IMG/VR virus record: IMGVR_UViG_3300005077_000033
Location: 1 to 51,620 of that record
Strand: one strand, 5' to 3'
Source of the DNA: a virus
Taxonomy: Duplodnaviria; Caudoviricetes
Length of the DNA stretch: 51,620 bases
In this document: positions 2,696-50,487 of the stretch, one piece after another
Layout of the letters: every line of letters begins with the position of its first letter
Numbering within the stretch: position 1 is the stretch's first letter
The notes under the pieces: model-generated
Seen by the model: only the letters and a program-made list of their open reading frames with translations
Databases searched by the model: none
Told to the model about the DNA's origin: nothing
Made by a program: the position numbers and the translations under genes

Positions 2696-2933
2696 GAGAC
2701 TCCTGTATATATTATGTAAAGTCACGGAACCTTTAATCAAGACTTCCAAGAGAATGAAAATCTTTACAATAAATTATTTTATCCTTCCAAACCTAATTCA
2801 GATTCGTTTTACATAATTGATATATTAATTAATATATAACTAATGTCTTGCCTTGTGCGGTCAAACCTATTTTAATACCACCTAGGCATAGCTTGTCAAG
2901 GGTATTCGTAAAATTGATTCGTGTATTATGTGC

Positions 2934-2961
2934 TTGACATTTACAAACTTTGTGCTATATT
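2934..2961 (+). promoter_or_regulatory. Sigma70-type promoter for the ncRNA-Ro60 unit
   Basis: TTGACA (2934-2939), 16-bp spacer, TG-C-TATATT (2953-2961); predicted start near 2968 coincides with the base of the first RNA stem. Confidence 0.75.
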
Positions 2962-2967
2962 TCATAT

Positions 2968-3020
2968 GCTCGACGTGATCGGTAGGTGTGCGGGACAAGG
3001 AACTGCACCCACGTCGGCGC
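2968..3020 (+). ncRNA. Stem-loop RNA, first element of the Ro60 leader
   Basis: UCGACGUG (2970-2977) pairs with CACGUCGG (3010-3017); inner GUGCGG/CUGCAC stem. Confidence 0.5.
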
Positions 3021-3082
3021 AGCAGGTACGAAGATAATGGTTACCCTGTGGAGAGAATTCCGTTATCAATCCTTGACCTGCT
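3021..3082 (+). ncRNA. Y RNA-like (Ro-binding stem-bulge) RNA
   Basis: AGCAGGU-A-CGA / UUG-ACCUGCU bulged helix (compare Y RNA GGUCCGA/UUGAC); upper stem GAUAAUGG/CCGUUAUC; lies just upstream of Ro60. Confidence 0.8.
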
Positions 3083-3088
3083 TGTCTT

Positions 3089-3213
3089 GGGGATCGTAGC
3101 TCAACGGGAGAGCGCGTATACCCCTCCCGGAACTTGACCGGATTATCGGGACGGACGGTGAGGGTTACCTTTGATAAAGGCGAGTTGCAGGTTCAAATCC
3201 TGCCGATCCCCCC
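3089..3213 (+). ncRNA. tRNA-like RNA with an expanded Y-RNA-like anticodon arm (YrlA-related)
   Basis: Acceptor GGGAUCG/CGAUCCC, U8A9, D arm GCUC-AACGGGA-GAGC, T arm GCAGG-UUCAAAU-CCUGC; about 65-nt insert instead of an anticodon loop; no encoded CCA. Confidence 0.8.
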
Positions 3214-3236
3214 TCAAATCTCGAAAGGAGATACTC

Positions 3237-4811
3237 ATGTACACAAAACATTTCAATACCCGCAAAACCCCTCAGTCTGAGTCCATTCCCGGAAAAGAAA
3301 TGGTGGAGAACTCAGCCGGAGGATACGTTTTTCAGTTGGATAAGTGGAAGAAGCTGGAACGTTTCCTGATCTTAGGTTCGGAGGGCGGGACTTACTATTC
3401 ATCGGAAGGAACGCTCACTATCCTTAACGCGAATAACATTATTGACTGCGCCAAAGAGGACCCCGTTCGTTCCGTGGGGATGATTACTCGAATCTCCATG
3501 AGCGGAAGAGCACCCAAGAATGACCCCGCCCTGTTTGCCTTGGCGGTGGTCGCTTCCTTTTCCTCCAGCGAGGGGCGTACCCTTGCCTTGCAAGAACTCA
3601 GCTCAGTGGCACGCACCGGTACCCACCTGCTACACTTTGCTCGGTATATTGACGACCTCCGGGGATGGGGGCGGGCTGTCCGCAGGGGGATTAGTCGCTG
3701 GTATTCCAATAAGTATGACGAAGGGAAGCTGGTCTACACTATGCTGAAGTATCAGTCAAGGGACGGGTGGAGTCAGAAGGATGTACTGTCTCTTGCTCAC
3801 CCCCGTCCTGTGTCGGAGGAAATGAACTCCCTCTTTCGGTGGCTGATGGGTAAGGAAGTAAAGCCGTGCAGTTTGCCTCTCTTGGTGCAGGCGTATGAAC
3901 AGGCAAAGACGGCAGACAAGGAACAGTTGTTGTCTTTGATTGAGGGGTATGGGCTTACAAGGGAAATGATACCCACTAAATGGCTCAGTGATCCTGATGT
4001 ACTGGGGTATTTGTTTAGGGAAATGCCCGTGACTGCAACTCTCAGGAACCTTGCCAACCTTTCAAGGGCAGGGTTGTTAGTCGAGGGGCAGTGGGATATG
4101 CTGGACACACTGAAGGAACGGTTCAGCCGGGACTCTCTGCACAAGGCGAGGGTACACCCTATCCATGTACTCGCCGCCCTGCACACATACAGCAGGGGCA
4201 TCGGATTCCGTAGCGCAAATACTTGGAAACCGTGGCGGAAGGTTATCGACCTTCTGGACACTGCGTTCTATGATTCTTTTTCTGCCACACAGACGACGGG
4301 ACAAAGGGTATTGATTGGTCTGGATGTATCCGGTTCAATGAGGAGCATTACTCCATATGCCGGGCTATCTGCCGCTGCTGTATCCGGTGCTATGTCCTTG
4401 GTCACGGAACGAACGGAACCAAAGACTACCATGTTCGCTTTCTCCGATCACTTTGTTCCCATTACCGCAGGAGAAACGTCGCTTGATGAATGGATGCGGT
4501 ACCTTAGACAAATGAGTTTCGGGGGGACAGACTGTGCCCTGCCTATGCTGTATGCGCTGAAGAATAAAATTCCTGTTGACGTGTTTCAGGTGTGGACCGA
4601 CAATGAGACGTGGTACGGGGAAATGCACCCGGCGCAGGCACTACGCATGTACAGGGACGTGATGGGTATTGATGCTAAGTTGATCGTAGCTGGAGTAACA
4701 GCAGTAAACTTTACTATTGCTGATCCTTCCGACGGGGGGATGATGGATGTGGTTGGTTTTGACTCCAACGTTCCATCTCTCATGCAGGATTTTATGGTGA
4801 ATAGGATATGA
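3237..4811 (+). CDS. rsr: Ro60/Rsr TROVE-domain RNA-binding protein with vWA domain
   Basis: ENSAGGYVF, LERFLILGSEGGTYY, RTGTHLLHF, GWGRAVRR, KYQSRDGWS, vWA MIDAS DVSGSM, GGTDCALPM, TDNETW, MDVVGFD; AAGGAG RBS before ATG 3237. Confidence 0.95.
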   Translation: MYTKHFNTRKTPQSESIPGKEMVENSAGGYVFQLDKWKKLERFLILGSEGGTYYSSEGTLTILNANNIIDCAKEDPVRSVGMITRISMSGRAPKNDPALFALAVVASFSSSEGRTLALQELSSVARTGTHLLHFARYIDDLRGWGRAVRRGISRWYSNKYDEGKLVYTMLKYQSRDGWSQKDVLSLAHPRPVSEEMNSLFRWLMGKEVKPCSLPLLVQAYEQAKTADKEQLLSLIEGYGLTREMIPTKWLSDPDVLGYLFREMPVTATLRNLANLSRAGLLVEGQWDMLDTLKERFSRDSLHKARVHPIHVLAALHTYSRGIGFRSANTWKPWRKVIDLLDTAFYDSFSATQTTGQRVLIGLDVSGSMRSITPYAGLSAAAVSGAMSLVTERTEPKTTMFAFSDHFVPITAGETSLDEWMRYLRQMSFGGTDCALPMLYALKNKIPVDVFQVWTDNETWYGEMHPAQALRMYRDVMGIDAKLIVAGVTAVNFTIADPSDGGMMDVVGFDSNVPSLMQDFMVNRI

Positions 4812-5548
4812 AACTTCAGACATTCGGAACGCCGAACCATTGGCTGTATGGGTCAGAGTCTGGTGCCTGTTTCATACTGGGTAATGGTCCTTCCTTGCTG
4901 GATATTCCGTTCGAGTTGATAAACATGTATCCCTCGTTCGGGTGCAACGACATCTTCCTGTATGAAGTGGTAACCGGACACCCTTTGAGACTTAAAGGGT
5001 ACAGCAACATGGGCAACACCCACTTCCTTGACCGGAAGCACCTCAGGGAATTGGAACATGCTGGTCTTATGTCTGAGTATTGCTTTATTAATCGGGAAGT
5101 CCTGACGGAGTACCCCGAACTGTATGACCTTATCAAGTCCAAAGTATTCTCCATCATTGGGAGTCCTTACAGAGAAACAGGAAAGCACGGCACCCTCTTT
5201 TCGCGTGCTTACTTTTCTCTTGGTCCGCTGGAGTACGTGGGGGTAGGGTATACCCAGACTTATGTAAACCTGCAACTCGCCTATGCCATGGGATATGAGA
5301 CTGTGTACCTTGCAGGGATTGACCACGATTACGGCACGGCAGATAGGCACTTCTATCCTGAGTCTTATTCCTCCAAAGACGTAGAGGACCGTGACTTGAT
5401 GGATGCTCTTTCCTTTCGGAGGGGTGCCGATGCTGTATATGACTTGTCTCGACGGGTCTATGAAGCGGACGGCAGGAAGATTTATAACCTGACGACTGGA
5501 GATACTACGAAGGTATTTGACAAACTCGATTACCGTGATATACTGTAG
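4808..5548 (+). CDS. DUF115/Maf/sialyltransferase-like glycosyltransferase-fold protein
   Basis: CFILGNGPSL...LAYAMGYETVYLAGIDHDY...HFY motifs. Confidence 0.7.
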   Translation: MKLQTFGTPNHWLYGSESGACFILGNGPSLLDIPFELINMYPSFGCNDIFLYEVVTGHPLRLKGYSNMGNTHFLDRKHLRELEHAGLMSEYCFINREVLTEYPELYDLIKSKVFSIIGSPYRETGKHGTLFSRAYFSLGPLEYVGVGYTQTYVNLQLAYAMGYETVYLAGIDHDYGTADRHFYPESYSSKDVEDRDLMDALSFRRGADAVYDLSRRVYEADGRKIYNLTTGDTTKVFDKLDYRDIL

Positions 5549-32464: not shown

Positions 32465-32494
32465 ATTCTACCAAATTTGGATTATCTGTGTCAA
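32465..32494 (-). promoter_or_regulatory. Sigma70-type promoter for scaffold/capsid genes
   Basis: TTGACA-18-TAGAAT with extended TG. Confidence 0.65.
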
Positions 32495-35400
32495 TATAAT
32501 CCGTCATTTGCCTGAAGCACCAAAGCAAGGAACTCCCGCCATTCGGGGTGCCGTGACATGGTACTCTCAATAAACTGCACTGCATCTTCGGACAGCGGTT
32601 CTTCTTCTGTCAGCATATTCTCAATCTCTATTGCCAACTCATCACCCAGTGTGTCGAACATTCCATCCGGTGTGATGGTAGACGAACCAATAATATCGGC
32701 TACCGCCCCTGATGGCTGAATAACTTCCCCTCCGTGATATGTATCTTGGTTGTACCACTTTGACCACATCTGGAAGTTTTCGCCCCACTGGTCTCGTAAT
32801 TCGTAATAGGCTTTGATCCTCGGATTACGGCGATATTCTACCCTGCGATCCGCTGTACCCATACGATAGTACAGTGCCAGTTCGTCAAAAAACCGATCTC
32901 CGAGAGAGGACGTAACCATATTATTGAATTCGTCATTCAGGTTCTGCGCCTCTGCCCATTCAGCCATTTGCTGAGTGGAGGGTCTGGGGTACTGCAAGTA
33001 ATCCAGTGCATTGAACAGGGCACGAGCGAATTTGGCAAAGTCCGCAGGGTCTGACCATGCTGAACTATTCCCCCCAGATTCGTACCACAAATCGATCCCG
33101 CTCTCTACGTCCTTGTCCTCCAGAGCGATCATATAGTCTATGACCTCACTGGTCTTTCCGGGAGGAATAGAAGCCAGCCTGTTCCACACTTCTGCTTCCA
33201 CAAGCGCCGGACCTGTGACTGCCTGCTGACGATCTTCGATACTTTTGATCTCTACATCAGGCAACGTAGCCTGCTCTACCAGTTCCTCCAGTGTCCACCG
33301 CCCTTGGTAGTTCTCCAGCACCCATGCTGCCAGCTCCACGGGGGTCGGAGGTTCTGGATGGCTTTCCAAGAACAGACGTTCCGCAAGCTGCCGCTCTCTG
33401 CCGGATAAACCACCAATGGCATCCCAGTAAGGATTCCAATAGAGTTCCTGCCACGCAGAGTTGAGCGCATCCAGTGGTGTGTCTTTTGACTTCTGCCAGT
33501 CTGTGTAGCTGTCGGAAGTCATTCCCCGGATAAGCCCGTCAATAAACTTTTGAACATTGAAATCCTGTCCGAGGTATGTCTGAACCACGCCACTTCGCAG
33601 GTCTTCCATCGTCATCCCTCGACCGCCTCCGATATAGTCGTATAAAATTAGGTCAAATTTAGTGCCGAGAGCCTGCGCATAGACTTGCAGGTTCTGCTCC
33701 CACTGTGCCTTACGTTCGGCGTAGCTTTCATAGCTATCCCCTTCTTCATATTTTGGGGCACTTTCCCGAATAAGCCGGTAGAACAGATCACGCATCTCAT
33801 TTTCGATAACCTGCCGGGGCTTGTACCCTGAAGTAGTTGCCCGGTACGCATCCACATAATAGGGGTGTGCCTCGATTTGGGCGATGGCGGCGAAGTAATC
33901 CTGATATATCTGCCAGTACATACTTGAATCTGCTCCGATGTCCAGTGTACTCAGCCGAGCCTGTAGCTGTTCGTAGGCTACACCCTTCGCCTCATGATAG
34001 GCATTGGTTACGTTTTCCTCGTGGATGGTCTGTGCCATAATTTCCCGTCGCTGCTGGGGATTGGGTGTTTCCCCTTCCGGGGTCCGTACCCAGCGCATAG
34101 CACCATACATATTATTGATCCACCCTTCTGAGGTGTCGTACTTTGTCGTGGTGTACCGCTTCCAGCGTTCTTCGATGTGAGGATCGAGTCCAAAAGCTGC
34201 CGATCCTATTTGGTTATTGAGAGTATCTCTGAGCATATTGATGTTGGTTCGTATCTGAATGATACGGGCATCGGCATCCGTAAAGGACTTGGGATAGATA
34301 CCAGTAAAAAACCCGATCAGGGTTGTGTTGTAATTCTGGCTGAACGCCCTGCGTTCAGCCTCCATCCACCACTCGCTGTCCCTGCGGGGAGCCAACGTGT
34401 ACGGCACTTCCGGTGTAGTTTCTGGATGCGAAAGAGTATAAGCAGTAACAGAAGAACGGTAGCCGAGAGCTTCCTGCACCCTTGCCTGTACCTGATCTAC
34501 ATCTACACCGGCATCCATCCACTCCATCGCCATCTTCAGAAGTTCTTCCTCTACCGCCCAATCTTCCCAAGACTGCGCAGGTGAGAAGGCTCTACGGTAA
34601 GTCTGACCGAGTACGGGGCTTGTCTGGCTGAGTTTTTCTTCTATCCACAGATGTACCCACTTAGGGATAAGATTCGCCTGCGGAACCAGAGAGCTTGTAG
34701 GCACCACGTTCTCATCCAGCGCACCGACAGCGAACAATGGTCCGGTGATCCACGGAGGAAGGCTCATGCCAAAATATGATCCTGTGTCGTACAGCATCAT
34801 GGTTACTTTCTGTGCGAAGTTAAGGTCATCTGTATCATGCCAATACATCCTGCGGTCCGGCATGATGGTACGGATAGACAGGGAAGCCGTAAGGTCTACC
34901 CACGTGTCGGTGCCGGGGATAGGAATAAACCCGTTCATGGACGGAAGCACCTCGCCCTCTGATGTTACTGCCCCTGCCTGCTTTGCGAACCTGCGGCTTG
35001 TCTGCATATACCGCTCATAGTAAGCAATAAGGGCAGGACGGGTCGTAACCAAATCCAGCCACATGGGGATGGAGGACTTTGTAAACATCCAGAACGGATA
35101 GATCGCCTTGATGGTCTGATCCAGCTGAGAATACTCCGTGTAATCCACCATGACCCTTTGTGTTCGGGGCAGGGCACCCTCTATGTCACCCAGCCCTTCC
35201 AGAGAGGCACCGTTACTTCCGTTCATGGCAATCTCAATCGCGTTGTTCTTTTCTTTCACACCCAAGTCCAGAAGCACACTGCTGATAAGATCGTACTGTG
35301 ACTCAGGAATAAGCCCACGCACAGTACCAGATTTCATCTGTTCCAGCAGTTCTTCTTTCCATGTTGTGAGAACCTCACGGTACGCCTTGAATTTCAGTTC

Positions 35401-38400
35401 AGTGTCCGTACTGGTGTACAGCCACTGTAACCAGTTATTCGGCTGCATACTCACATCCCACGGCACCATCAGCCTAGGCACGTCAGTCGGAAGTCCCAGA
35501 GTGACTTTGGCATGAGTTGTCATGGTGTTCATGAAATTCTCTATTTCCTTGTAGTAAACCTCGAACGTATCCCGCAGAGGTCCTTCCTCCATATTGGACA
35601 AGTACGTACCAAGCCATTCCTTCAAACTCTCCGGTGACTTCAGCACATTCTTAGGTGCCCGTTCCCTGAGAACCTGAAAGACAGGACTGCTTTTCAGGTG
35701 AGTTTTCCACATGGAGTCTCTGAGCTGGGCTACGTTTGTCTGCATAGCTCGTTGTGCCAGTTCCTCCGGCGGAATACGGGCACCGAAATCCTGCATCCAA
35801 ATTTTAGTCAAAGCATCGGCTGTTTCATCGTCCCCTACCATGCGATACAAATGGGGATGTGGCGGAGTAACCATGCCGCCGCCCGTTGAGTATGACCCAC
35901 TGCGCATGGAATCTGCCATATAGGTACGCAGGCGATTGTACATGTTCCGTTCTGTCCTATTTTCTGGAACTATGCCCTTCTTCACCTTCTCCAGAACGGC
36001 AATCATCAAATTGGTATGTTCCTCATTTGATTTATGAGACTTGCCCTTTAGGATTTCCCACCACTGCATAGATCGTATCTGATTGTTGGTTGCATTGTTC
36101 AACGTATTCAGCATCTGGTCAGCCTGCATACGGAAGATGTGCTGAGACAGTTCGTCTATTTCATCCAAAGGAAGGGAAGCCAGTTCCGCTGTGACCAATA
36201 TGGTAGGATCGTCTATAACCTCATCTATGAACTTCTGATACCCGTCCTGTGCAGCTTTCAGCAGTTCTTCTCTTGTTATATCGGGGGTTATTTCTGTCCC
36301 CCCGAAAGAGGCAAAAGCAGCCAGCACATAGGGATCATCCATATCCACACTGGAAGCGTCAAGCTCGCCGTTGATGATTTTTAGAAGATTCTCTGTTGGA
36401 TTGCCAGCATCGTCAAAGCTCGCCCAAAAATTGAGGTCTCTTGTTGGTTCCGTCAGTCCCGGCAGAACGGAGTGCAGATTTTCAGTAGCATCCTCATACG
36501 CCAACTGAAGTCTAGCTTGGGGGAGGCGCATACGTAGTACGTTTTCTGCCGCCGCCGTTCCTGTCTGATTGACAGCCACCCCAGACTTCCTGAGACCCTT
36601 CACCTTTTCCAGATCGAAAGTCTTCCTGAAAGACGGATCGTGTCTGTGTAGCCACGAACTGGTCAGGATATTCTCCATTTTGGCGAGGTTCGCTCCTGAG
36701 TCTGCAAAAGAAAAATTGATTTCCTTTCCGAGCAGGGCATTGAAGAACACCTCCAGCTGGTACTCATTGTTCATTGTAAAGTGCTTGCCATTCCCGGCAA
36801 GTCGCAAAGAAGCAAACCGTTCGGTTTCCCTGCCGAGGGTGGGAAGAATACCGACATTAGCCAGAAAGTCTCCGATATACAGCTCACCGACTACCATATC
36901 CAGACGTTTAATAAGTTCTTCGTCAGAGATGGTGGCATCGAAGGTCCAGCTGGATACATAGTCCAACAGAACCTTTGCCCTCCGACTTTGGTAGTTGTAC
37001 AGGTTTTCCATAATGCCGTGGTACAAAGCCCACGTATCCAGCATGGCTGTGCCCGTTTTCGCCATAGGATTCATGGCATCCAGAAAGGCCCGCTGTACTC
37101 TGTACCGTAACTTTCCGGTCTCCCTCACGTAGTTCTCTACCCTGCTGTGAATTATGTTAAGCTGGTTCCCTTCCCGGATATTCCTGTTCTGTGTAGCCTG
37201 CTTCAGCTTGGTAGCCCGCCCTTCCAGTGCCTCTGTAGTCTGACCTGTCAGTTCGGTTACCCTATCCGTATATCCCTTCAGGGCATCCGTCAACTCGCCG
37301 TGTGCCTTTTCCAGTTCCTCGCCAGCCCTGCGCACACTGGAAGTAGCGGAAGTAACGATGGCTTTGGATTCATCTTCCGTCATGCCTTCCGTCATCGCCC
37401 GCTCAAATTCATCAAAAGGTTCGTCAACCTCTCCCTTTGCAAGTTTCTCGGCAGCCTCGGCTGTCATTTCCTCCGCTACTTCTCTCTGTGTGAGCTGGAT
37501 CATGATCGGCTCAGGGATGACCGGAGTATTGAGAAGTTCCCTCGTAGACTTAATCAAATCAGAAACCTTCTTGTGCTTTGTATCGTTATACAGATCAGTC
37601 AGAGTTTTCATGACCTGCTTCTGATACTCAACAGCGTCCATCGTTCCCATCTCAAACTCATCAGTCAGGCGGAGTATCTTCTGTTTCGCTTTCTCCAGCC
37701 CTTCGATGGGTTTTCGTACCCTCGCTGCAATTTCCCCCAGCCCTGCTACTGTATGTTCCTTCACCCTTGTATTGGGTCCCGCTGTCAGGAACCGCGAATA
37801 GCCCTCTGAAATATCTTCCAGCTGCCCCTGAAAATCAAGTACATCCTGCTCAGTCAGTGCATTGAGTCTAGCCTGTACCCTTTCTTCCTGTGTGATGATG
37901 TGAACGAGTTCGTCTGCATCCGACACAGCCAGTTCGGACGGATTGCGGGACAGGACACTGGTAAGACTGAACCTCAAATCCCTTGCGTCCTCTGTCCCCA
38001 GCCGTGTCAGTACATCCTCGTCATCCAATATTTTCAGGAGTGAATCAAATAGATTGCCAATAATAACTTCCGGTGATTCATTCCTCGCCATCCCCGTGGT
38101 CATCATCTCCACAATCTGTTTATGGATGGGATCAAACAGAAGATGCCGCTCTGCCGGGGTCAAAACCTCAGCCAGCTGCATAACTGTATCGGAAATGAAC
38201 ATGGACTGCACCATGCGTCCCTTCACGGATTCTCCGCCGAGGGACTTCAAAAGGGTGCCCATCTTGTCTGTGTCTGTGCCAGCCCTGCGATATACCTGTA
38301 AAGCAATTTCTACAGTATCGTCATCTGCCCCCAGCGCACGGAGAGCCGCCTCTACCTTTTTGATGGCGGTTGTATCCAAAGCCTCATACACACGGAAGAA

Positions 38401-41400
38401 TTCCGTATGTATCATCCGGGCACGCAAACTCATTTCCAGTGCAGAACTGAAGTCGGACCAACCACCCGTCCACGATTTATACAGTAACCGGAGAGGGTTG
38501 GTAATGCCTTCCCCCCGCATCCGGGTAAACTCATCCCACATCAACCGGACAGGAAGAAAAGCAGGATGAATACCAGTATAGTCACCACGGATCAATCTCT
38601 GTGCGATCCCCTCTGCTGCACTGAGTTCCATCCTGCTGAAGTTCTCACCAGCTTCTGCCATACTTTCCATGCCTAGATCGCTTGCCATCGCCCCTAGATT
38701 TTTTGACAGATCAGTAAGCTGGGACCAGATCAAACTCATGGACTCGTAGGGTGACCGTCCTGTGACGACAGCGCGAAATGTGCTGTCTATCCAGTTTCGC
38801 ATCGCCCAACGGGGGTTGAAGCTCAGTACCGATTCCACCCACGCATTACGAAAAATGGTTCCCCATGTTTGCAGAGACTTGATGGAGCTGGAAATCAGTT
38901 TATGTTCTTTGAAGAAATCCTCCCCAAAGGCAAGAATAAGCAAATTGTCTTTCATCAATCCGGTCGGTTCGTTTACATTGAGACCACGCAAGGCAGAACG
39001 AATCTTGTCAGAGAACGCACGCATGATTTCATTCTTTTGTGTGGCTATCCATTTTCCTGCCGCCCGTCCTGCTTCCTCTCGTGCAAGAGCTGCTGTCATT
39101 CCTTCGGATACAAACTTGGCAGTAAGTCTCTCAACTTCTGCATTGTACATATCCTGACCAATCTTATTGATGATCGTACCCCAGTTTTCTGGACGGACAG
39201 CCTTCAGCACAGACGCTGCTCTTGCACTCAGATTTTGCTCCCCATGATTGAACAGCGCATCAATGGTAGCCTTGATCCTCTTTATGTGACCATCACGGAG
39301 AGAATACGGAACCAAGTCCATACTGGTGTCCAGATTCTTTTTCAGGGCGTCCACGGTAAGTTCCCCTGCGTCATCTGATACACTGCGAATACCTCGCACA
39401 ACCAGATCAATCACATCTCCGAGATTTCCAGACCCCGCATCTCCAAGTACCTTGTCAACCTGCCGGGTGATGATGAGCATAGCGCTCTGAAGTCCATTTG
39501 TGAGTTTGGTGATGGCAGAAGCTCGTGCCTGATTCACCGTAGCCTTTCCGATATTCCACATGAAGGTGGCGGAACCCTTAATAACGCGAGCTATGATGTC
39601 ATCCGCCTCTGCTTCCGCCGCCTCTTTGAGTACGCGCATGATCCCCTTACCAATTGCTTCTGTGAGTTCTTTCCCTGCCGCCTTCAGTGGGACTTTGAAG
39701 AAATCCAGAGTAATCCAGTTCGTAGGATCAAGAACCATCTGACCTGCAATCTCTGTTATAGGATCAACAAAGTAGTCTTTCAGTTTATAATAGTCGTCCT
39801 GATTCAGGGGTCGTCCCATTTGCATGGAGAGTTCCGTAGCCGCGTGGAGGAAGGCTTCATACTGCTGAGAGTCCACTTCCCACGTGAAAGCGAACGCTCT
39901 GGATGTAGGACCGAAAGTAGATACCTCTAGATCAACTGCCGTTCTCGTGAGCCGATACGCACGATCAAAAAATTCTTCGTACTGGGCGAGCTGTTCGTTG
40001 GTCGGATTGTATATCTCAGGAAAGTTGTGGATATACTCCAGATAGGGTCGAGCCTGCACACGCAAAGATGCCGCCTCGTTCAGAGAATCAGCTGCAATCA
40101 GGCGAGAATATTCCATGTTTGCCATATCCCTCGCCCTCGCTTCCAAGTCCGTCCCCATGGGTGCCTGTACAGGTGCCCCTCCCATATCCAAACCCTGCAA
40201 CCCTCTGATGAGTTCATTGGGGGCTTGAATCTCAGCCAGATTACGCTGGTACATCTCCTGCCAGCGGGGGTCTGCTTCTCTTTCTGCCGCAGCCTGCAAC
40301 CCTCCCGGATCAGAAGTAAATTCAGTCCATGCACTTTCCATGTCCGAAAGAGCCTCGTGCATCCTTGTGTATGAGATGCCGGATATTGGACGAAGTTCCA
40401 GTCTGTCCTGTGCATTAAGAGTTTCCCAGTCTTTCTTTGTAGCCTTCAGCCCGGTTTCCGTATCAAAGTAGGCATATCCCAGTCGCGGTGCCCTTATCTC
40501 TGTGTCGTCCTCTGCGACCATCTGATCTCCATACAGCATCCGTTCGGCGGACATGTTGTAGGGAGCCGCATCTGGCATCGCACTACTTCTCGCATCGGAA
40601 GCCTTGCGCACTGTCTCCCAAAATAAAATCCCCATAAAGTTAACAGAAGTTCTCATGGCAGACCATACCGCCCTGAGCAGAGGTGTCTGCTGTATCTGAT
40701 ACCCCACGTAATTGGGGGGAGCATCCAAGACAGGAGCAATGTCCTCTGTAAAGATTGTCAGGGCATTGTGCGTCATCCCGGCAGGAACGAACATAACCTG
40801 CGCCCCTACTGCGTTGGTGGTATAGAAAGTATTCCGTTCAATCTCCGCTATCTGTTGCAGACGTGCCTGTTCTTCCTCTTTCTTCTTCATTTCCTTTTGA
40901 AGCTGAAGGGCGTAGGCGTTCCTGTACTGCGGAGGAATATTTTCATTGAAGTCCATATTATGTAAATACTGCGACGCGGCTTGCAGATAATTCGCATTAT
41001 CCGTATTCTCTGTGCCCCGTTCCTGCTGGCTTGCCACTTCGGCAAGTCTGCGTTCCTCTGCCCTCTGAATAACACCAGAGGCAAATCCATCCACCAGACC
41101 TCCATCGCCCTGCTCTCCGGCAGACGGATACAGGCTGGCATAGAATCGACGACGATCCTCATCTATGTTCTTCCAGTCCCCTGTCTCCAGTTCGCTGGCA
41201 TAGATCAGGTTATTCAGGGTGGCTTTTTCTTCTGGAACCCCCGCATCAATCATAGACTGGAGAGCCGCCTGTACTTCCGGGTTCTGCGCATAATACTCGT
41301 TACGCATATCCAAATAAGACTGGGTTTGTCCAGTTTCCTGTGTCGGGGTTTGGGGCTGGAGAAGTTGATCGGTGGACTGTTGTCCGTTTCTTACAATATC

Positions 41401-41682
41401 CATCGCGGTTTGGACATCTGTATTAAGTCCGGGGATCGTCCCCTCCAGCACCCCCTGCCGGTTGTAACCCGCCGCCCCTTCGTAGGGCTGACGATGCAGT
41501 TCCTGTTCGGACATGTAGGGGTCTTTTTGTTTCTTGGGAATTACCAGCTGATCTCCGGGATGGAGAGTGAATATGTTCGGGTTGGCGCGCATCAAGACGC
41601 CGAGCATCCTAGAATGTTCGCCGTACAGTCGAGTTGCTATACTACTCCATGAATCTCCACCACGTACTGTGTATTTTCCCAT
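32491..41682 (-). CDS. Giant (3063 aa) internal virion/ejection protein with N-terminal LysM-like domain
   Basis: YTVRGGDSWSSIATRLYG...ANPNI..LHPGDQLVIP; mostly helical; lies between portal and scaffold. Confidence 0.75.
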   Translation of the reverse strand: MGKYTVRGGDSWSSIATRLYGEHSRMLGVLMRANPNIFTLHPGDQLVIPKKQKDPYMSEQELHRQPYEGAAGYNRQGVLEGTIPGLNTDVQTAMDIVRNGQQSTDQLLQPQTPTQETGQTQSYLDMRNEYYAQNPEVQAALQSMIDAGVPEEKATLNNLIYASELETGDWKNIDEDRRRFYASLYPSAGEQGDGGLVDGFASGVIQRAEERRLAEVASQQERGTENTDNANYLQAASQYLHNMDFNENIPPQYRNAYALQLQKEMKKKEEEQARLQQIAEIERNTFYTTNAVGAQVMFVPAGMTHNALTIFTEDIAPVLDAPPNYVGYQIQQTPLLRAVWSAMRTSVNFMGILFWETVRKASDARSSAMPDAAPYNMSAERMLYGDQMVAEDDTEIRAPRLGYAYFDTETGLKATKKDWETLNAQDRLELRPISGISYTRMHEALSDMESAWTEFTSDPGGLQAAAEREADPRWQEMYQRNLAEIQAPNELIRGLQGLDMGGAPVQAPMGTDLEARARDMANMEYSRLIAADSLNEAASLRVQARPYLEYIHNFPEIYNPTNEQLAQYEEFFDRAYRLTRTAVDLEVSTFGPTSRAFAFTWEVDSQQYEAFLHAATELSMQMGRPLNQDDYYKLKDYFVDPITEIAGQMVLDPTNWITLDFFKVPLKAAGKELTEAIGKGIMRVLKEAAEAEADDIIARVIKGSATFMWNIGKATVNQARASAITKLTNGLQSAMLIITRQVDKVLGDAGSGNLGDVIDLVVRGIRSVSDDAGELTVDALKKNLDTSMDLVPYSLRDGHIKRIKATIDALFNHGEQNLSARAASVLKAVRPENWGTIINKIGQDMYNAEVERLTAKFVSEGMTAALAREEAGRAAGKWIATQKNEIMRAFSDKIRSALRGLNVNEPTGLMKDNLLILAFGEDFFKEHKLISSSIKSLQTWGTIFRNAWVESVLSFNPRWAMRNWIDSTFRAVVTGRSPYESMSLIWSQLTDLSKNLGAMASDLGMESMAEAGENFSRMELSAAEGIAQRLIRGDYTGIHPAFLPVRLMWDEFTRMRGEGITNPLRLLYKSWTGGWSDFSSALEMSLRARMIHTEFFRVYEALDTTAIKKVEAALRALGADDDTVEIALQVYRRAGTDTDKMGTLLKSLGGESVKGRMVQSMFISDTVMQLAEVLTPAERHLLFDPIHKQIVEMMTTGMARNESPEVIIGNLFDSLLKILDDEDVLTRLGTEDARDLRFSLTSVLSRNPSELAVSDADELVHIITQEERVQARLNALTEQDVLDFQGQLEDISEGYSRFLTAGPNTRVKEHTVAGLGEIAARVRKPIEGLEKAKQKILRLTDEFEMGTMDAVEYQKQVMKTLTDLYNDTKHKKVSDLIKSTRELLNTPVIPEPIMIQLTQREVAEEMTAEAAEKLAKGEVDEPFDEFERAMTEGMTEDESKAIVTSATSSVRRAGEELEKAHGELTDALKGYTDRVTELTGQTTEALEGRATKLKQATQNRNIREGNQLNIIHSRVENYVRETGKLRYRVQRAFLDAMNPMAKTGTAMLDTWALYHGIMENLYNYQSRRAKVLLDYVSSWTFDATISDEELIKRLDMVVGELYIGDFLANVGILPTLGRETERFASLRLAGNGKHFTMNNEYQLEVFFNALLGKEINFSFADSGANLAKMENILTSSWLHRHDPSFRKTFDLEKVKGLRKSGVAVNQTGTAAAENVLRMRLPQARLQLAYEDATENLHSVLPGLTEPTRDLNFWASFDDAGNPTENLLKIINGELDASSVDMDDPYVLAAFASFGGTEITPDITREELLKAAQDGYQKFIDEVIDDPTILVTAELASLPLDEIDELSQHIFRMQADQMLNTLNNATNNQIRSMQWWEILKGKSHKSNEEHTNLMIAVLEKVKKGIVPENRTERNMYNRLRTYMADSMRSGSYSTGGGMVTPPHPHLYRMVGDDETADALTKIWMQDFGARIPPEELAQRAMQTNVAQLRDSMWKTHLKSSPVFQVLRERAPKNVLKSPESLKEWLGTYLSNMEEGPLRDTFEVYYKEIENFMNTMTTHAKVTLGLPTDVPRLMVPWDVSMQPNNWLQWLYTSTDTELKFKAYREVLTTWKEELLEQMKSGTVRGLIPESQYDLISSVLLDLGVKEKNNAIEIAMNGSNGASLEGLGDIEGALPRTQRVMVDYTEYSQLDQTIKAIYPFWMFTKSSIPMWLDLVTTRPALIAYYERYMQTSRRFAKQAGAVTSEGEVLPSMNGFIPIPGTDTWVDLTASLSIRTIMPDRRMYWHDTDDLNFAQKVTMMLYDTGSYFGMSLPPWITGPLFAVGALDENVVPTSSLVPQANLIPKWVHLWIEEKLSQTSPVLGQTYRRAFSPAQSWEDWAVEEELLKMAMEWMDAGVDVDQVQARVQEALGYRSSVTAYTLSHPETTPEVPYTLAPRRDSEWWMEAERRAFSQNYNTTLIGFFTGIYPKSFTDADARIIQIRTNINMLRDTLNNQIGSAAFGLDPHIEERWKRYTTTKYDTSEGWINNMYGAMRWVRTPEGETPNPQQRREIMAQTIHEENVTNAYHEAKGVAYEQLQARLSTLDIGADSSMYWQIYQDYFAAIAQIEAHPYYVDAYRATTSGYKPRQVIENEMRDLFYRLIRESAPKYEEGDSYESYAERKAQWEQNLQVYAQALGTKFDLILYDYIGGGRGMTMEDLRSGVVQTYLGQDFNVQKFIDGLIRGMTSDSYTDWQKSKDTPLDALNSAWQELYWNPYWDAIGGLSGRERQLAERLFLESHPEPPTPVELAAWVLENYQGRWTLEELVEQATLPDVEIKSIEDRQQAVTGPALVEAEVWNRLASIPPGKTSEVIDYMIALEDKDVESGIDLWYESGGNSSAWSDPADFAKFARALFNALDYLQYPRPSTQQMAEWAEAQNLNDEFNNMVTSSLGDRFFDELALYYRMGTADRRVEYRRNPRIKAYYELRDQWGENFQMWSKWYNQDTYHGGEVIQPSGAVADIIGSSTITPDGMFDTLGDELAIEIENMLTEEEPLSEDAVQFIESTMSRHPEWREFLALVLQANDGLY

Positions 41683-43119: not shown

Positions 43120-45020
43120 TCCATACCTCCGGTCATCTTTGGAGACCTGCTCAGGAGCTTGCGTATCGTGTCCATCGCTGACTGTCCCGGAGGGGCACCG
43201 CCCTGTTCCTGCTGGGAAAGTTCTCCGGTTGAAGACGGCATACCGCCCATAGCCTGCTCAGGGTTCGGCGGTTCCTCCGGTCGCCCCGGCTGTCCCGGAA
43301 CTCCCTGCTGCTGCTTCATCTGGTCGAGAACGGCCTTTGCCGCCTCGTCCCCGGACCTCGCCAGTTCCTCGAAAGTTGACATAAGCATGTATTGCAGCAT
43401 GGCTGGGTGTTGCATGATCTGTTCCTGCATCAACAGGTCCATCATATCATCCGGCTGGTCAATATCCAAATACTTTTCCATGATATAAGTATTCGGAAGA
43501 ACACCACGAACCTGTGTCGCCATCGCATGATTACGGGTCTGGTCGTTGGGAAATTCCGGCTTGATCTTTGCCTTCACAAGGAAGTCATCAAAGTCATCCA
43601 TAATGAGCTGCTCTAAAAAGTCCTTCCCTCTGAGCACCCCATACACTCTCAATACCTCTCCACGCGCATACGACACCGCCAGTTCGATAATTTTGCGCCC
43701 GACCTGCGACCACAACATTTCCAGATGAACCCTAGGCTGTGCGAGCCTGATCCTGTTCTGGTCACTGAGCTGGGACAGGGCATATCCCGTTCCCTCTCCC
43801 ATCCCCGCACCGAACATGACATCAGCAAACCCGGACTGCTGTACCCTTGACCTGAGATATTCAATGTGCTGGTTGACGTCCGGCGGATTGCCCCACCATT
43901 TCGGAAATTCGAGTGACTCATCCGTAGCCATTTCAACGGTATTCCCAAATGCCGCATCGACTGTAACCTTCCTGCCCGCCATTGTCCTGATCTGAAGGGG
44001 AAGTCCTGTGTACCGCTTGATCTGCATATCCCTGCGGTTCACGGCACGTTCCAGCTCCAGCACAGAAGTTTCCATCGGAGACATTATGTTATGTCCCCAA
44101 TCCTCCGGCTGGTCCTTGTCAACGGGCTTGAAGAAGCCGATAGTGTAGGGGAAATTCGTAACCCCGTCCATGTCTACCATATCCCACACAGGGACACCAG
44201 AGAACATCAACCCGTTTTGGAACACCTTTACCTTTTTTGTCTCTCCGGTGGGGACTTCTTCTTCCACGTATTCACCTTCTTCATTAAAAGACACAACGGT
44301 TTCCATCACAGGTTCGTCCCGTTCCACATACCGCCAAATGTCCACCAATTCGCCCATCTGCCGTATCTTCATTTCAGGAGTCAGGTGAGAGAACTGTTCA
44401 AGAGTAGTATCAAACAACCGTTCAACATCGTGGACGGACATTTCCTCTACCCGGAACATATATAACCAACGATAGGGTCCACCGGGCAAAACGAACATCT
44501 TCAGGGGGTTGATTGTCTGCACTCTAATGGGCGGCAAAGAATACCCCGTGTACGTTATGACGGTCTCCGAGTCAGGATCGGGTATCTGGAAGGTTCCCCT
44601 GTACTCGTCAGCCAGTCCGGTGTCCCACACCGTGTACAACACCGCCGCACCGTCCCTCACGAAATTCAGGAACGAGGTGTAGTAAAGGTGTTCTTCTTCC
44701 CTCTCACTTGCTATGTCGATTACCCCGGCAAGAAACTTCTCAATCCGACTTGAAAGTTTCTGGTTTACCATGGACGGATTGTACGAACTTACCTTCCATT
44801 CCACGTCATTTGCCAGAAGGATACCCACCGCCAAATCAACTACGTTTGTAAACGTAGGATCAGAGAACCGTGATTCGCCCGGCTGCGGTTTCTTCGTGTA
44901 ATGTTTGAATTTGTAATACCTGCGCCACCGCTGTATTTGGTCGTGCCACGGCTGACAAAAGCTGCGAGAGGACTGGTACAGCGACAGGATTTCCTGAAAC
45001 TCTTGCTTGACTTCTTTCAT
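43116..45020 (-). CDS. Portal protein (podovirus type)
   Basis: Follows the terminase; about 634 aa; Gln/Pro/Gly-rich C-terminal tail; GGAGG RBS before 45020. Confidence 0.8.
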   Translation of the reverse strand: MKEVKQEFQEILSLYQSSRSFCQPWHDQIQRWRRYYKFKHYTKKPQPGESRFSDPTFTNVVDLAVGILLANDVEWKVSSYNPSMVNQKLSSRIEKFLAGVIDIASEREEEHLYYTSFLNFVRDGAAVLYTVWDTGLADEYRGTFQIPDPDSETVITYTGYSLPPIRVQTINPLKMFVLPGGPYRWLYMFRVEEMSVHDVERLFDTTLEQFSHLTPEMKIRQMGELVDIWRYVERDEPVMETVVSFNEEGEYVEEEVPTGETKKVKVFQNGLMFSGVPVWDMVDMDGVTNFPYTIGFFKPVDKDQPEDWGHNIMSPMETSVLELERAVNRRDMQIKRYTGLPLQIRTMAGRKVTVDAAFGNTVEMATDESLEFPKWWGNPPDVNQHIEYLRSRVQQSGFADVMFGAGMGEGTGYALSQLSDQNRIRLAQPRVHLEMLWSQVGRKIIELAVSYARGEVLRVYGVLRGKDFLEQLIMDDFDDFLVKAKIKPEFPNDQTRNHAMATQVRGVLPNTYIMEKYLDIDQPDDMMDLLMQEQIMQHPAMLQYMLMSTFEELARSGDEAAKAVLDQMKQQQGVPGQPGRPEEPPNPEQAMGGMPSSTGELSQQEQGGAPPGQSAMDTIRKLLSRSPKMTGGME

Positions 45021-47569
45021 CTCAACGCCTCCGGTAACCAATCAGTGTCGCTCGGATCACTGAGTGACGAAATTTCCCCTTCAGGATAACGAATGATAAG
45101 CGGAATAGACACGTCAACACCACCCTTGCGAACACAGTCATAACACGCCATAGCCAACGCCACAGCCCCGTCAACTGGTCTGCGGCTGGTGGCGTCCTTC
45201 ACAATCCTGAAGCCTCTGCCCCTATCCTCAGCAGCGGCAAAGATTACATGTTCTCTCAACTCGTCCTCTGGGTAGACCTCTATGCCTCTTGTCTTAAACA
45301 ACTCAAACAGGTTCTGCGACATGGCCATTGTATTCTGAACAGTCTGGTCAAACCGAACCATGTTCAGTCCCTTGGATGCCATCACAATGGAGGAACGATG
45401 GAACTGATAGGGGTCGTACATTACGGTAGAGATATTGAGTACCTTCTTCATGTCAAATACATACTGCTCAATCTCTCCGGGATCAAGTTCGTTACCTGCA
45501 CCTTTGCCGGGGTGCCATATACGATTGAAGGCGAGACAGACCTTATTCCTGTCTGTATCAAAATACACCCCAACCACGGCAGCCCTGTCCCCGTTCACAC
45601 TGATGTCGATACCCACGGAAACCGGAGACCTGTACCACTTTGACTGCTTCTCGTACAGCAGGGGGGACTTCAGCACTTCCGCCCTGTCCCAATACTTCTT
45701 CGGAATAAATGCAGACTGCGCCGTTACCCACTCGTTTCGGTGGAGGCGGAGAAACTGTTCTGGTCGCAGCTCTGTGGTCTGTTCCTCATAATACTCAGGC
45801 GTCTGCCACGGCAAGCGGGGAACACTATCCCAATAAGCAAACCTGCTTCCTCGCCGCCAGCACACGGGCTTGCCGTTATTGTCTACTATGTCTTCCAGTT
45901 CGGGAACAGGCTCTCCCCTCAGTACAATGTCTTCATACATATCCCACAGCAGGTCACTCTCTCCCTGAAATCCTGCATAAGTAACGATTACTTTGAGGGG
46001 GTACTGTACCGTAGGAGGCAAAGTCATTTCCTCCCATAGACGCCTGCTCTGCTCCGAAATGTACGCCCACAGCTCATCGAATAGAACAAAGGATTGCCGT
46101 CCGCCCGCCGCCGATTTGTACTCCTGAGCCAGCACATAACCAATTGACCCATTAAGCATCTCCACCTTGTCCTTGCGCGGTACTGCCAAGCCTGCCTTTG
46201 TCAAATGGTAGCTGACATCTCCGTAAGCCCTCATTGCAGTCTGTTCCTTATCGTTCGCTATCAGATATACCTCTGAAAACGCTGGAGCTTCTTCGAGATA
46301 CCAACTGGTAAGTGCGGCTCCAATAGTAGTGTTATGAGTAGGAATAAAAGAACGTCCCACCACAAACAAATGAGAATCTGAATCCACCATCAAGCACCGC
46401 ACAGGAACACTGTCCACTTCCTCTACCGCAACAATACTGTTTGTTTTCGATCTCGCCTTTCTGTCCGGCGAGTCGACCTGCCTTTCTCTTTTTCTAGTGA
46501 GATTAAATACTGGAATATCATTGTGTGCCGTGAAGTGGATTCGGTATTTAGTCCCTATAACCCTTCCGTATAATGTAGCCTGACCAGTAATTACTTTGGA
46601 CTTAATTCCCAGAGAAGCCAGCAATTCCCATACATCTTCTGCCAGATTTTTATTTGTCGAAGTAAATTCACATCTTCCCTTTTCGCTAATGTATCCATCC
46701 GAATCCATTAAACCTCTGAGAAGTTCCAGCCTGTCATGTCTTGTAGCCCTGAGATAGGAAATGGGAATGTGTTTGTTATCACGTAACTTCCATTTTCTCA
46801 GAAAGTATCCGAAGGTGTGGGTTCTGGTCGAAATGTCCCCTCCGACCTTATCACCAAACAGGACACTCGGTGGTCTATTCTTATGCCTTTTGATTCTGGC
46901 ATCTATACCTCTATCCCTCAACAGAGAAACCAATTCTTCAATATCTGCATCACCAGATGTTATACGAGTTGATGTAGAACTTCCGTCTCCCAACCACACT
47001 CCTATGAGATAGGGATCAAAAGGCAATCCGCTGTTACCGCCCGCTATTCCTGCTGACACTGCCACTCTGTTCGTATACCCCCCACAGAGTCCCTCCACCT
47101 CGCCCGCCAATTCTTCTGTAGTCTTTATAGAAGGGGTGTGATGAAACTGATCCAGCACTTCCCAGTCGTGGTCAGATGAAGCTATTACTCTCTCCCCATT
47201 GGCAAATTCAATTTCATAGCACCTACGACCATACATCACATCGGTTACGTACTTAACCCTAACTGGATTTCCTTCCACATCAAATACATAATCTCCGACC
47301 CTGATGTCCCCCATCGTCCTATACCCATCCGGTGTAGGAACAATAGTGGAAAGTGCCAAAGGTTTTCCTGATTTTTTGATCGTACTGTACACCACCGTTG
47401 TATACGGGAATTTATTTGTCTCTGGATTGAGGGTAAAGGCATGACTCAATATACGTTCCTGAAAGGGGAACAACTTCATCTTTTCCTCTTTCTGGAAACC
47501 ATCAATCGGATCATACGCATCCCTGATCCAGAACCCCTTTGAGTTGAACCAATCAAGAAAATTTTTCAT
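45017..47569 (-). CDS. terL: Terminase large subunit containing an intein
   Basis: Walker A KKSGK|T split by the intein; Walker B FVLFDELW; nuclease motifs VGID, YDPY, VDGAVALAMA. Confidence 0.92.
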   Translation of the reverse strand: MKNFLDWFNSKGFWIRDAYDPIDGFQKEEKMKLFPFQERILSHAFTLNPETNKFPYTTVVYSTIKKSGKPLALSTIVPTPDGYRTMGDIRVGDYVFDVEGNPVRVKYVTDVMYGRRCYEIEFANGERVIASSDHDWEVLDQFHHTPSIKTTEELAGEVEGLCGGYTNRVAVSAGIAGGNSGLPFDPYLIGVWLGDGSSTSTRITSGDADIEELVSLLRDRGIDARIKRHKNRPPSVLFGDKVGGDISTRTHTFGYFLRKWKLRDNKHIPISYLRATRHDRLELLRGLMDSDGYISEKGRCEFTSTNKNLAEDVWELLASLGIKSKVITGQATLYGRVIGTKYRIHFTAHNDIPVFNLTRKRERQVDSPDRKARSKTNSIVAVEEVDSVPVRCLMVDSDSHLFVVGRSFIPTHNTTIGAALTSWYLEEAPAFSEVYLIANDKEQTAMRAYGDVSYHLTKAGLAVPRKDKVEMLNGSIGYVLAQEYKSAAGGRQSFVLFDELWAYISEQSRRLWEEMTLPPTVQYPLKVIVTYAGFQGESDLLWDMYEDIVLRGEPVPELEDIVDNNGKPVCWRRGSRFAYWDSVPRLPWQTPEYYEEQTTELRPEQFLRLHRNEWVTAQSAFIPKKYWDRAEVLKSPLLYEKQSKWYRSPVSVGIDISVNGDRAAVVGVYFDTDRNKVCLAFNRIWHPGKGAGNELDPGEIEQYVFDMKKVLNISTVMYDPYQFHRSSIVMASKGLNMVRFDQTVQNTMAMSQNLFELFKTRGIEVYPEDELREHVIFAAAEDRGRGFRIVKDATSRRPVDGAVALAMACYDCVRKGGVDVSIPLIIRYPEGEISSLSDPSDTDWLPEALR
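45979..45993. promoter_or_regulatory. Palindromic site AAGTAA-CGA-TTACTT (copy 6, intragenic)
   Basis: Exact consensus match inside terL. Confidence 0.6.
46331..47362 (-). mobile_element. Class 3 intein (344 aa) with LAGLIDADG homing endonuclease
   Basis: Starts PLALST, ends THN|T; SSDHDW, VRCLMV, PTHN; YLIGVWLGDG and LLRGLMDSDG. Confidence 0.9.
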
Positions 47570-48358: not shown

Positions 48359-48723
48359 AGGGCTTCCTCTTTACAGTTCAGGCACAGAGGACCTTCCTCT
48401 GGTGGATAGTTCTTCTGCTTCAGGCGACGGTAAAATACAACAGAGTTCTCTGCGAATTTCAGGGTTCTGTGTGTCCCCTTCGCCCCACATGAAATACAGG
48501 TATGATCGTAGGCAGTGAGGGCTTCTTCCCTCAGACGGATACGATCCTCCGCCCTTTGTTTACGGTACTCTGTTTCATACTCCAGTCGGCACTCCCGGCA
48601 ATACTGACTGCGCCCGTCTGGGCGGCTTGCCTGTTCACTGAAATCCTCCACACCTTTCACGACACCACAACGCGGACAATACTTCAGTCCTTCCCCTTCT
48701 GGTATTACTGTCTTTCGTGCCAC
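48355..48723 (-). CDS. Zinc-finger protein, degenerate HNH-type
   Basis: CPRC...F...PDGRSQYCREC; CISC...LCLNC. Confidence 0.6.
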   Translation of the reverse strand: MARKTVIPEGEGLKYCPRCGVVKGVEDFSEQASRPDGRSQYCRECRLEYETEYRKQRAEDRIRLREEALTAYDHTCISCGAKGTHRTLKFAENSVVFYRRLKQKNYPPEEGPLCLNCKEEAL

Positions 48724-49877: not shown

Positions 49878-49884
49878 AACTTCC

Positions 49885-50487
49885 TCACCTTTTCTGGAAT
49901 ACCCAGTATACCGAATGGTTCTTCCGTGCATGGTGCTGGTAGTTGTGCCTCATGACGGGGGCACGGGAATTCGTCTGGATAAACATATCCACATCTGTCA
50001 TTCCCATTTCTTCTACCGCCATCCGCCAGACTCCAATAGACTGCCTCGTCTGCTTTCCACTTTCAATCTGATCCTGACACTTTACGACCATATAGCCATC
50101 AACTCTCAGCACTCTCCACGCTTCCTCCATGAAGTCCCTGTATAGACCAAGAACAGCTTCCATGCCGTGCTTCTTTCTCTTGTTGTTATTATATCCATCT
50201 ATCGTCATCGGACAACCACTCCCTTGCTTGTAGGGCGGGTCAATAACAACCACGTCGAGAGAGAAGTCATCATAGGGGAGACTGGTTCCATCTTCTGCCG
50301 GAACATCACCAGAAAAAAGATCGGAGGGTAAAAAAGTAAAACGGGAGGTGTCGATGTTTTTCCAGAACACTCCCTTCCCGTATGTGACGTCCGCAACAAT
50401 GAAACCATCTTCAAAAAACAATGTGGCGATGGCATCCATCACCACACTGCTGTCTCCCATGTACGAAGTAACCACGGGAAAATTCAT
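49885..50487 (-). CDS. DNA amino-methyltransferase
   Basis: DVTYGKGVFW, VIDPPY, EAWRVL, KCQD. Confidence 0.8.
   Translation of the reverse strand: MNFPVVTSYMGDSSVVMDAIATLFFEDGFIVADVTYGKGVFWKNIDTSRFTFLPSDLFSGDVPAEDGTSLPYDDFSLDVVVIDPPYKQGSGCPMTIDGYNNNKRKKHGMEAVLGLYRDFMEEAWRVLRVDGYMVVKCQDQIESGKQTRQSIGVWRMAVEEMGMTDVDMFIQTNSRAPVMRHNYQHHARKNHSVYWVFQKR

Follow-up and report, generated by a model that had tools for sequence, protein, structure and literature searches.

Ro60 proteins are encoded by about 5% of bacterial genomes and contact mainly the 5′ strand of their Y RNAs, for which the bacterial motif is given as GNCGAAN0-1G, leaving the base before the C free (PMC4201824); the animal site is GGUCCGA, with a critical bulged C at position 9 (PMC4030889, PMC11277228). 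Deinococcus Yrn2 and the YrlB RNAs of Salmonella and M. smegmatis are long hairpins that carry NCGAAG, lie beside rsr and share a transcript with a tRNA-like partner (Chen et al. 2014, PMC4201824). YrlA is a circularly permuted tRNA in which the acceptor is closed and the anticodon loop absent (10.1101/312249). Among phages, phiLo encodes phiRo60 as well as the RNAs Yrl1 and Yrl2 (Hu et al. 2025, PMC12135203, PDB 9L5Y); each of the CGAA bases of Yrl2 is reported to have a 3–4-fold effect, phiLo Ro60 and Yrl RNA bind the host PNPase and slow it by 71–76%, and the host is described as having no Ro60 of its own (PMC12135203). A Ro60-like gene of phage Bas63 is reported to counter the Ppl defence (PMC11482910, preprint).

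The window analysed here—the whole of a 51,620-base linear virus record that is about 81% complete—contains phage capsid, helicase, Ro60 and RtcB genes; its capsid matches are only about 30% identical and gave no host assignment. Along the plus strand, a promoter, a hairpin, a 62-nt RNA, a tRNA-like RNA and the Ro60 gene follow one another (Table 1), the last preceded by a Shine–Dalgarno-like run (3225–3230), and the promoter is predicted to start a polycistronic transcript of the RNAs and Ro60. The first hairpin, which had no Rfam match, no homologue in the fetched loci and no match to our hairpin model R1 (below), is possibly a leader or a decayed Y-like RNA. Its loop region bears a loose likeness to the Ro 5′ strand minus one G. 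Downstream, an open reading frame (4808–5548, +) that overlaps the Ro60 stop codon and has a weak, below-cut-off MptE-like match (E 4e-4) is probably co-transcribed with Ro60. Elsewhere, the minus strand carries a terminase-like frame (45017–47569, 850 aa) with, by eye, an internal stretch resembling an intein that contains a homing endonuclease, and a 3063-aa frame (32491–41682) with a LysM-like start, also by eye, within the virion gene block.

Table 1. Coordinates of the features discussed, numbered from the first base of the window.
Feature	Position	Strand	Basis or detail
Sigma-70-like promoter, predicted	2934–2961	+	11/12 consensus matches, extended −10 TG; consensus match only
Upstream hairpin	2968–3020	+	−21.4 kcal/mol, z only −1.3
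Short hairpin Y RNA (YrlB/Yrn2/phiLo-Yrl2-like), assigned	3021–3082	+	Fold and model R1
Lower stem of the 62-mer	3021–3027/3076–3082	+
Upper stem of the 62-mer	3033–3040/3060–3067	+
GGUUACC of the 62-mer	3039–3045	+
Ro60-site 5′ strand	3027–3033	+	U7 (pairs A3076), A8 = 3028 (faces G3075), C9 = 3029, then GAAG
tRNA-ordered Y RNA, assigned	3090–3213	+	Rfam tRNA 44 bits, 64-nt stretch unaligned
Acceptor arm	3090–3096/3204–3210	+
D arm	3099–3113	+
Anticodon stem	split after 3116	+
Y module, 51 nt	3117–3167	+	Between tRNA positions 28 and 29
Ro 3′ strand in the Y module	3133–3139	+	First in strand order, then the loop
Ro 5′ strand in the Y module	3148–3156	+	After the loop
Anticodon loop	3171–3177	+	GAU
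T arm	3187–3203	+
Ro60/Rsr gene, intact	3237–4811	+	524 aa; Pfam TROVE and vWA_Ro60
RtcB RNA ligase gene	48723–49931	−	Pfam RtcB, E 3e-67

The 62-nt RNA lies on the Ro60 strand, 154 nt 5′ of the Ro60 start. A first-pass annotation had described it as a minimal Y RNA resembling those of animals, with a bulged A in place of the bulged C, and the ends that it quoted agree letter for letter with the sequence. Folded with its 5′ and 3′ ends joined, the hairpin reaches −18.6 kcal/mol (z −2.6; equalled by 4 of 200 shuffles), and pair probabilities in both stems are 0.94–1.0 (0.72 for the terminal pair). The combination of a Ro site with GGUUAYC occurs twice in the window, in the 62-mer and in the tRNA-like RNA, against a mean of 0.18 per window in 100 dinucleotide shuffles, none of which reached two. 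The conserved C9 and CGAA core are present (3029–3032). Relative to the bacterial motif, the hairpin has NCGAAG with N = A, and the leading G has become U with a compensating A on the other strand; relative to GGUCCGA, six of seven letters agree, C9 is retained and C8 has become A.

Like Yrn2 and YrlB, the RNA is a long hairpin with a tRNA-like partner, an rsr gene beside it and NCGAAG, although it is shorter than the 80–130 nt given for characterized Y RNAs (PMC4201824) and differs from them by having U at position 7, the leading G of GNCGAA, and by the A8–G apposition. As in phiLo, two phage RNAs lie 5′ of a phage Ro60 and one is a stem–bulge–stem hairpin with CGAA, of similar size to Yrl2 (about 62–64 nt as read from the published primers); the primer sequence gives Yrl2 a G before CGAA where the 62-mer has A (PMC12135203). 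phiRo60 is distant from the window protein (E 7e-9), the accessible parts of the phiLo report describe no tRNA-ordered RNA, and binding, which is predicted for our RNA, was shown for phiLo. With animal Y RNAs, the 62-mer shares C9, the following GA and the U7–A pair of GGUCCGA, but it has A for C8 and neither the large pyrimidine loop nor the 3′ oligo-U tail. The likeness to animal RNAs that the annotation had proposed holds for the U7–A pair and does not extend to the Rfam models: the comparison that it had suggested with the Y_RNA and stem-bulge models, run together with YrlA, gave no match at the gathering score, nor, over 2850–3300, at E values up to 10.

To place the hairpin among its relatives, we drew on viral and genome collections for 161 Ro60 loci (the best 80 of 509 matches and the best 80 of 590) and took a further 15 from metagenomes. 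Ro-site modules numbered 247, in 117 of the 161 listed loci, with C at position 8 in 193, U in 40, G in 10 and A in 4, several of the G8 and A8 modules resembling chance matches. With a strict search for hairpins, 40 of 177 sources yielded 46, and the opposite strand none. Related hairpins span 44–91 nt (median 66; the two shortest are mis-parsed), and 18 of 59 are 63 nt or shorter by the same measure, so that 62 nt is an ordinary length and 'minimal' an unfitting description. A covariance model, R1, built from 39 Ro60-linked hairpins with the window left out, returned the 62-mer with identical ends as its top match in the window (25.6 bits, E 0.0015; runner-up 10.6 bits), bearing out the annotation's placement of a Y-type RNA beside Ro60, although the score is low relative to most relatives. 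We take the 62-nt hairpin to be genuine, a short Y RNA of an established type whose Ro60 site is a rare but recurrent variant.

Several other matches touch on the breadth of this family. The nematode stem-bulge model RF01656 matches three bacterial hairpins above threshold in two of five loci tried (L210 1070–1141 and 1905–1974; L228 1914–1982), linking both groups. Hairpins with the full animal-type site (U7–A, C8–G) occur at L324 2634–2701 and L327 3496–3565, in contigs labelled GVMAG (giant-virus bins) that had no Ro60 match in the flanks searched. Phage loci L123 and L167 hold several module copies with U for the conserved C9, another locus-wide variant. The cultured Ro60 phages Karp, Phosso, FuzzBuster and GMA2 gave four weak hairpin matches, in three of the phages and none with A8; FuzzBuster and GMA2 have the YrlA order on reading. 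An exact two-strand pattern of the 62-mer hit 116 viral loci, none with Ro60 in the 80 flanks searched, and these were set aside as chance matches.

Covariation within the family indicates that position 8 is paired and position 9 bulged. In all 39 aligned hairpins, the partner of position 8 is the base that follows CUU (33 C–G, 6 U–A), and position 9 could pair in 33 but fails in the six U–A cases; these counts are not independent events, because the hairpins are relatives of one another and paired stems were a criterion in choosing them. Among 235 distinct R1 matches from 78 viral or metagenome and 80 genome loci (18 duplicate or short-fragment loci left out), position 8 is C–G in 192, U–A in 40, and A–U, U–G or gapped in one each, in alignments that, being fitted to R1, lean towards pairing. 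C9 is kept in 230 of the 235. None of these matches beside related Ro60 genes has an A8–G apposition and none has the U7–A pair of the 62-mer, and in the 161 listed loci A8 is credible in two cases, L149 and L214, both with U opposite. The family therefore has position 8 paired and position 9 bulged. The 62-mer breaks the position-8 pair, and its A8 faces G. The Watson–Crick pair that it lacks there is a trait of the family and lies outside the published definition. The A singled out in the annotation is thus unusual, as had been claimed, but it does not replace the bulged C, which is retained at 3029; it occupies the position that is paired in the family. The same A was also said to occur in the tRNA-like RNA, and it does: there A8 is 3151 and C9 3152, and the appositions G3150/A3137 and A3151/G3136 form a tandem G–A.

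The drawing with a bulged A remains available to the free RNA, since folding ranks the A-bulged register lowest (−17.1 kcal/mol), followed by an open loop (−16.4) and by the family register with an A–G mismatch and C9 bulged (−14.5). If this register prevailed, C9 would be paired to G in the free RNA and Ro60 would read an alternative helix, for which the two conformers drawn for the Xenopus Y3 stem (PMC4201824, supplement legend) offer a precedent. We regard this as highly improbable: the middle of the hairpin is undecided, with C9–G at a probability of only 0.45; covariation sets position 8, not position 9, opposite the 3′ base; and L149 and L214 have U opposite A8. The bulge in the first-pass drawing is one possible register among three. 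The free register may in any case not matter, because Xenopus Ro60 reportedly separates the helix on binding (PMC12135203).

The reading that we favour, with a probability of roughly 65%, is that the 62-mer is a short Y RNA of the bacterial and phage type, which likely docks on the phage's own Ro60 with C9 and CGAA kept and the A8–G apposition tolerated. That it likely docks through a slightly altered site follows from the match to the class, the retention of the key C and the rare A8–G variant, which all the Y-type RNAs found in three other phages share.

The A8–G apposition recurs in three other phages. At L300, one of six matches of an A8–G pattern lies directly 3′ of a Ro60 gene (45 bits; record 12% complete), and among 33 loci obtained with three three-part patterns, of which R1 matched four, only L300 has Ro60 in its flank; a G7–A8 pattern gave no convincing hairpin in 23 cases. 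A permuted pattern hit eight loci, and two of these, L335 and L336, are real Y-RNA clusters; the pattern had spanned two adjacent RNAs, so no second tRNA-ordered A8–G RNA was found. L336 is a 169-kb virus in which Ro60 adjoins the cluster, and L335 a complete 479-kb virus with Ro60 elsewhere in the genome. Searched with positions 7 and 8 left free, all three modules at L336 and all five at L335 have A8 (a further two and four scattered matches were at chance level by control and are uncounted). The A8–G cluster of L335 (2303–3160 of the locus; G006 151858–152720) comprises five Y RNAs inside a tRNA array about 120 kb from Ro60, a distance at which such RNAs would escape neighbourhood searches.

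These phages bear on a second reading, in which A8–G was selected as a private code, the phage Ro60 preferring its own RNAs while host Rsr binds them poorly; the annotation had likewise suggested a Ro60 with shifted specificity, orthogonal to any host Ro RNP. All nine Y-type modules of the three other phages have A8 (11 of 11 with the window phage), and the best 3′ partner places G opposite in 10 of these 11, the eleventh having G in one of two tied partners. In L335 the neighbouring position-7 pair switches (A–U in two RNAs, U–A in three) while A8–G stays constant. The four Ro60 proteins do not form one clade in a 159-sequence FastTree whose deep supports are low; they are 1.7–2.3 substitutions per site apart, and wherever RNAs were found for their tree neighbours, these have C8 or U8. 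Across 188 RNAs from 74 loci, within-locus agreement is higher at site positions 6–10 (kappa 0.41–0.71) than at positions 1–4 (0.09–0.21). Fixation of A8–G in each phage, with this agreement, fits locus-specific selection rather than mere tolerance; uniformity within a locus would also be expected from slow evolution after old duplications, or from gene conversion. The three other A8–G phages also came from patterns that demanded A8 and G, Ro60 is rare among bacterial genomes (PMC4201824), and the host of phiLo is described as lacking it (PMC12135203), all of which weigh against a code directed at host Rsr. Of the 20 loci with a U8 RNA, 12 also hold a C8 RNA, so that one Ro60 can evidently serve both paired forms. 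In the literature looked up, some of it accessible in part, we met no description of an A8–G Ro site.

The protein adds evidence on both sides. The window Ro60 matches the human, Xenopus and Deinococcus structures at E 1e-101 or better and keeps the equivalents of Xenopus K170, R174, G176, W177, D181, L185 and H187, among which H187 and G176, W177, D181 and L185 are named as Y-RNA contacts (PMC4030889, PMC11231564). The comparison with Xenopus and Deinococcus proposed in the annotation thus found the other reported contacts unchanged, with one exceptional replacement. Ser185 of the window protein is Arg in human, Xenopus (R184), Deinococcus and phiLo Ro60. This Arg presumably contributes to RNA binding in Xenopus. 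Among 119 homologues the site is Arg in 117, Lys in 2 and Ser in none, and among the 161 listed loci it is Arg in 150 and Ser in one. The aligned residue of phiLo Ro60, Arg173, is reported to change Kd from 16.6 to 25.7 nM, a 1.5-fold effect (PMC12135203). Ser185 is the best support for the inference of a shifted specificity. As a needed partner of A8 it was ruled out, given that the Ro60 proteins of L300, L335 and L336 all keep Arg. We found no residue common to the four A8–G proteins and absent elsewhere; at positions 97 and 148, three and four of the four, respectively, differ from consensus, but by different residues. In Poribacteria, the Ro60 proteins of eight loci (L253, L262, L263, L265, L266, L269, L271 and L275) have Ala or Ser in place of the same Arg, and the modules beside them have C8 or U8.

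Among the four, Ser occurs in the window Ro60 alone. We consider a selected code unlikely, and likewise orthogonality of the phage Ro60 RNP, which is possible but has no backing from such a change; fixation of A8–G in every copy within four phages nevertheless keeps the idea of shifted specificity alive. The same residues could instead mark a pair that is drifting, with Ser185 and the A8 mismatch both products of relaxed selection and an RNA that binds poorly or no longer matters. The low R1 score, the two G–A appositions in the Ro stem of the tRNA-ordered RNA, and Ser185, Gln180 and Thr168, which all differ from the close-homologue consensus, would agree with decay. Yet the stems are intact, the reading frame is open, the core contact residues and promoter are kept, Gln180 is found in Deinococcus Rsr as well, and A8–G recurs in three other phages, which makes drift very unlikely.

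The neighbouring RNA is unlike any Y RNA that we met in print, within literature some of which was accessible in part. It carries the Ro 5′ strand, YUAY and tRNA D and T arms beside Ro60, and model R2, built with the window left out, scores it at 78 bits; ARAGORN called no tRNA there. It resembles YrlA (RF02553) in these elements, in an A15–U48 Levitt pair and in adjacency to Ro60, but it has free acceptor ends, canonical order, a five-pair anticodon stem with its loop, and a loop that caps the Ro stem. The permuted order of YrlA, in which the Ro 5′ strand is followed by T arm, closed acceptor, D arm and Ro 3′ strand, is absent, and RF02553 gave no match. An eighth acceptor pair (3089/3211) is possible, and CCA is not encoded. 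The RNA is a complete tRNA cloverleaf with an inserted Ro module, the reverse of the YrlA wiring.

The tRNA-ordered form is widespread in the sample: 58 (57 distinct) of 134 tRNA-order elements have it, in 43 of 162 sources and always on the Ro60 strand, and 25 of 161 listed loci fit a strict pattern for the YrlA order. Limnoglobus roseus (L228) and Tautonia sociabilis (L250), both in culture, carry the tRNA-ordered form. In an alignment of 39 sequences, pairing reaches 100% in the acceptor, where each of the seven pairs shows two-sided changes (in part a requirement of the search that built the alignment), and 92% in the inner Ro helix. Of the 57, 32 have an anticodon-type loop of seven bases closed by three pairs, 6–8 nt from the T stem (shuffle mean 2.2), with 14 different anticodons among these loops, and the D-proximal pairs 27–43 and 28–42 form in 30 of the 32 (shuffle mean 7.5). 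An eighth acceptor pair is possible in 40 of the 57, and CCA is encoded in 11. In five whole genomes that contributed to the model, all those longer than 100 nt among the matches listed (150 of 197) lie at the Ro60 locus; the remaining listed matches are ordinary 72–78-nt tRNAs.

On the favoured reading, a mechanism can be proposed in which the promoter would drive a single precursor transcript and RNase P, cutting at the tRNA-ordered RNA's 5′ end, would free the 3′ end of the hairpin. The 5′ strand of the 62-mer would then dock onto the outside of the phage Ro60 ring, where the hairpin may gate or tether Ro60 by analogy with Yrl1 and Yrl2 of phiLo and the host PNPase. A8–G may act as a helix-opening non-canonical pair that tunes binding while ordinary Ro60 proteins still bind, and the overall role could be to protect phage RNA or to counter an RNA-directed host defence. 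For the consequence, Bas63 serves as a model beside phiLo.

With its retained anticodon loop, and with RtcB in the same phage, the neighbouring RNA might act as a decoy or in repair. The RtcB gene is far from Ro60 in the linear record and would be near the Ro60 region if the genome were circular, and RtcB is a possible partner in RNA repair; as a close neighbour it is present in only 5 of the 161 listed Ro60 loci (2.5–3-kb flanks) and in one of 41 loci with tRNA-ordered RNAs. Alternatively, RtcB-dependent splicing might convert the RNA to tRNA-Ile. A broader version of the private-code reading holds that A8–G arose independently several times, swept all Y RNAs of a phage—hairpin, YrlA-order and tRNA-order alike—and made them orthogonal to host Rsr, and that in the window phage the intact Ile anticodon loop of a Ro60-tethered, tRNA-ordered RNA baits or senses the anticodon nucleases of the host, RtcB being the repair enzyme; we think this a little more doubtful still than the selected code by itself.

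As a kind of RNA the hairpin is ordinary; three other points are of use. The comparison indicates that in bacterial and phage Y RNAs both strands of the Ro helix are maintained, position 8 being paired and C9 bulged like those of animals, whereas the 2014 description reports conservation for the 5′ strand only, in YrlA and YrlB (PMC4201824). The A8–G site, a recurring natural variant, offers a direct test of orthogonality between Ro60 and Y RNA and may also serve as an RNA-tethering tool. The tRNA-ordered form, common beside Ro60 in our sample, with its Y module between tRNA positions 28 and 29 and varied anticodon loops, suggests a route by which YrlA arose and makes the purpose of the tRNA module testable, be it decoy, sensor or spliceable tRNA.
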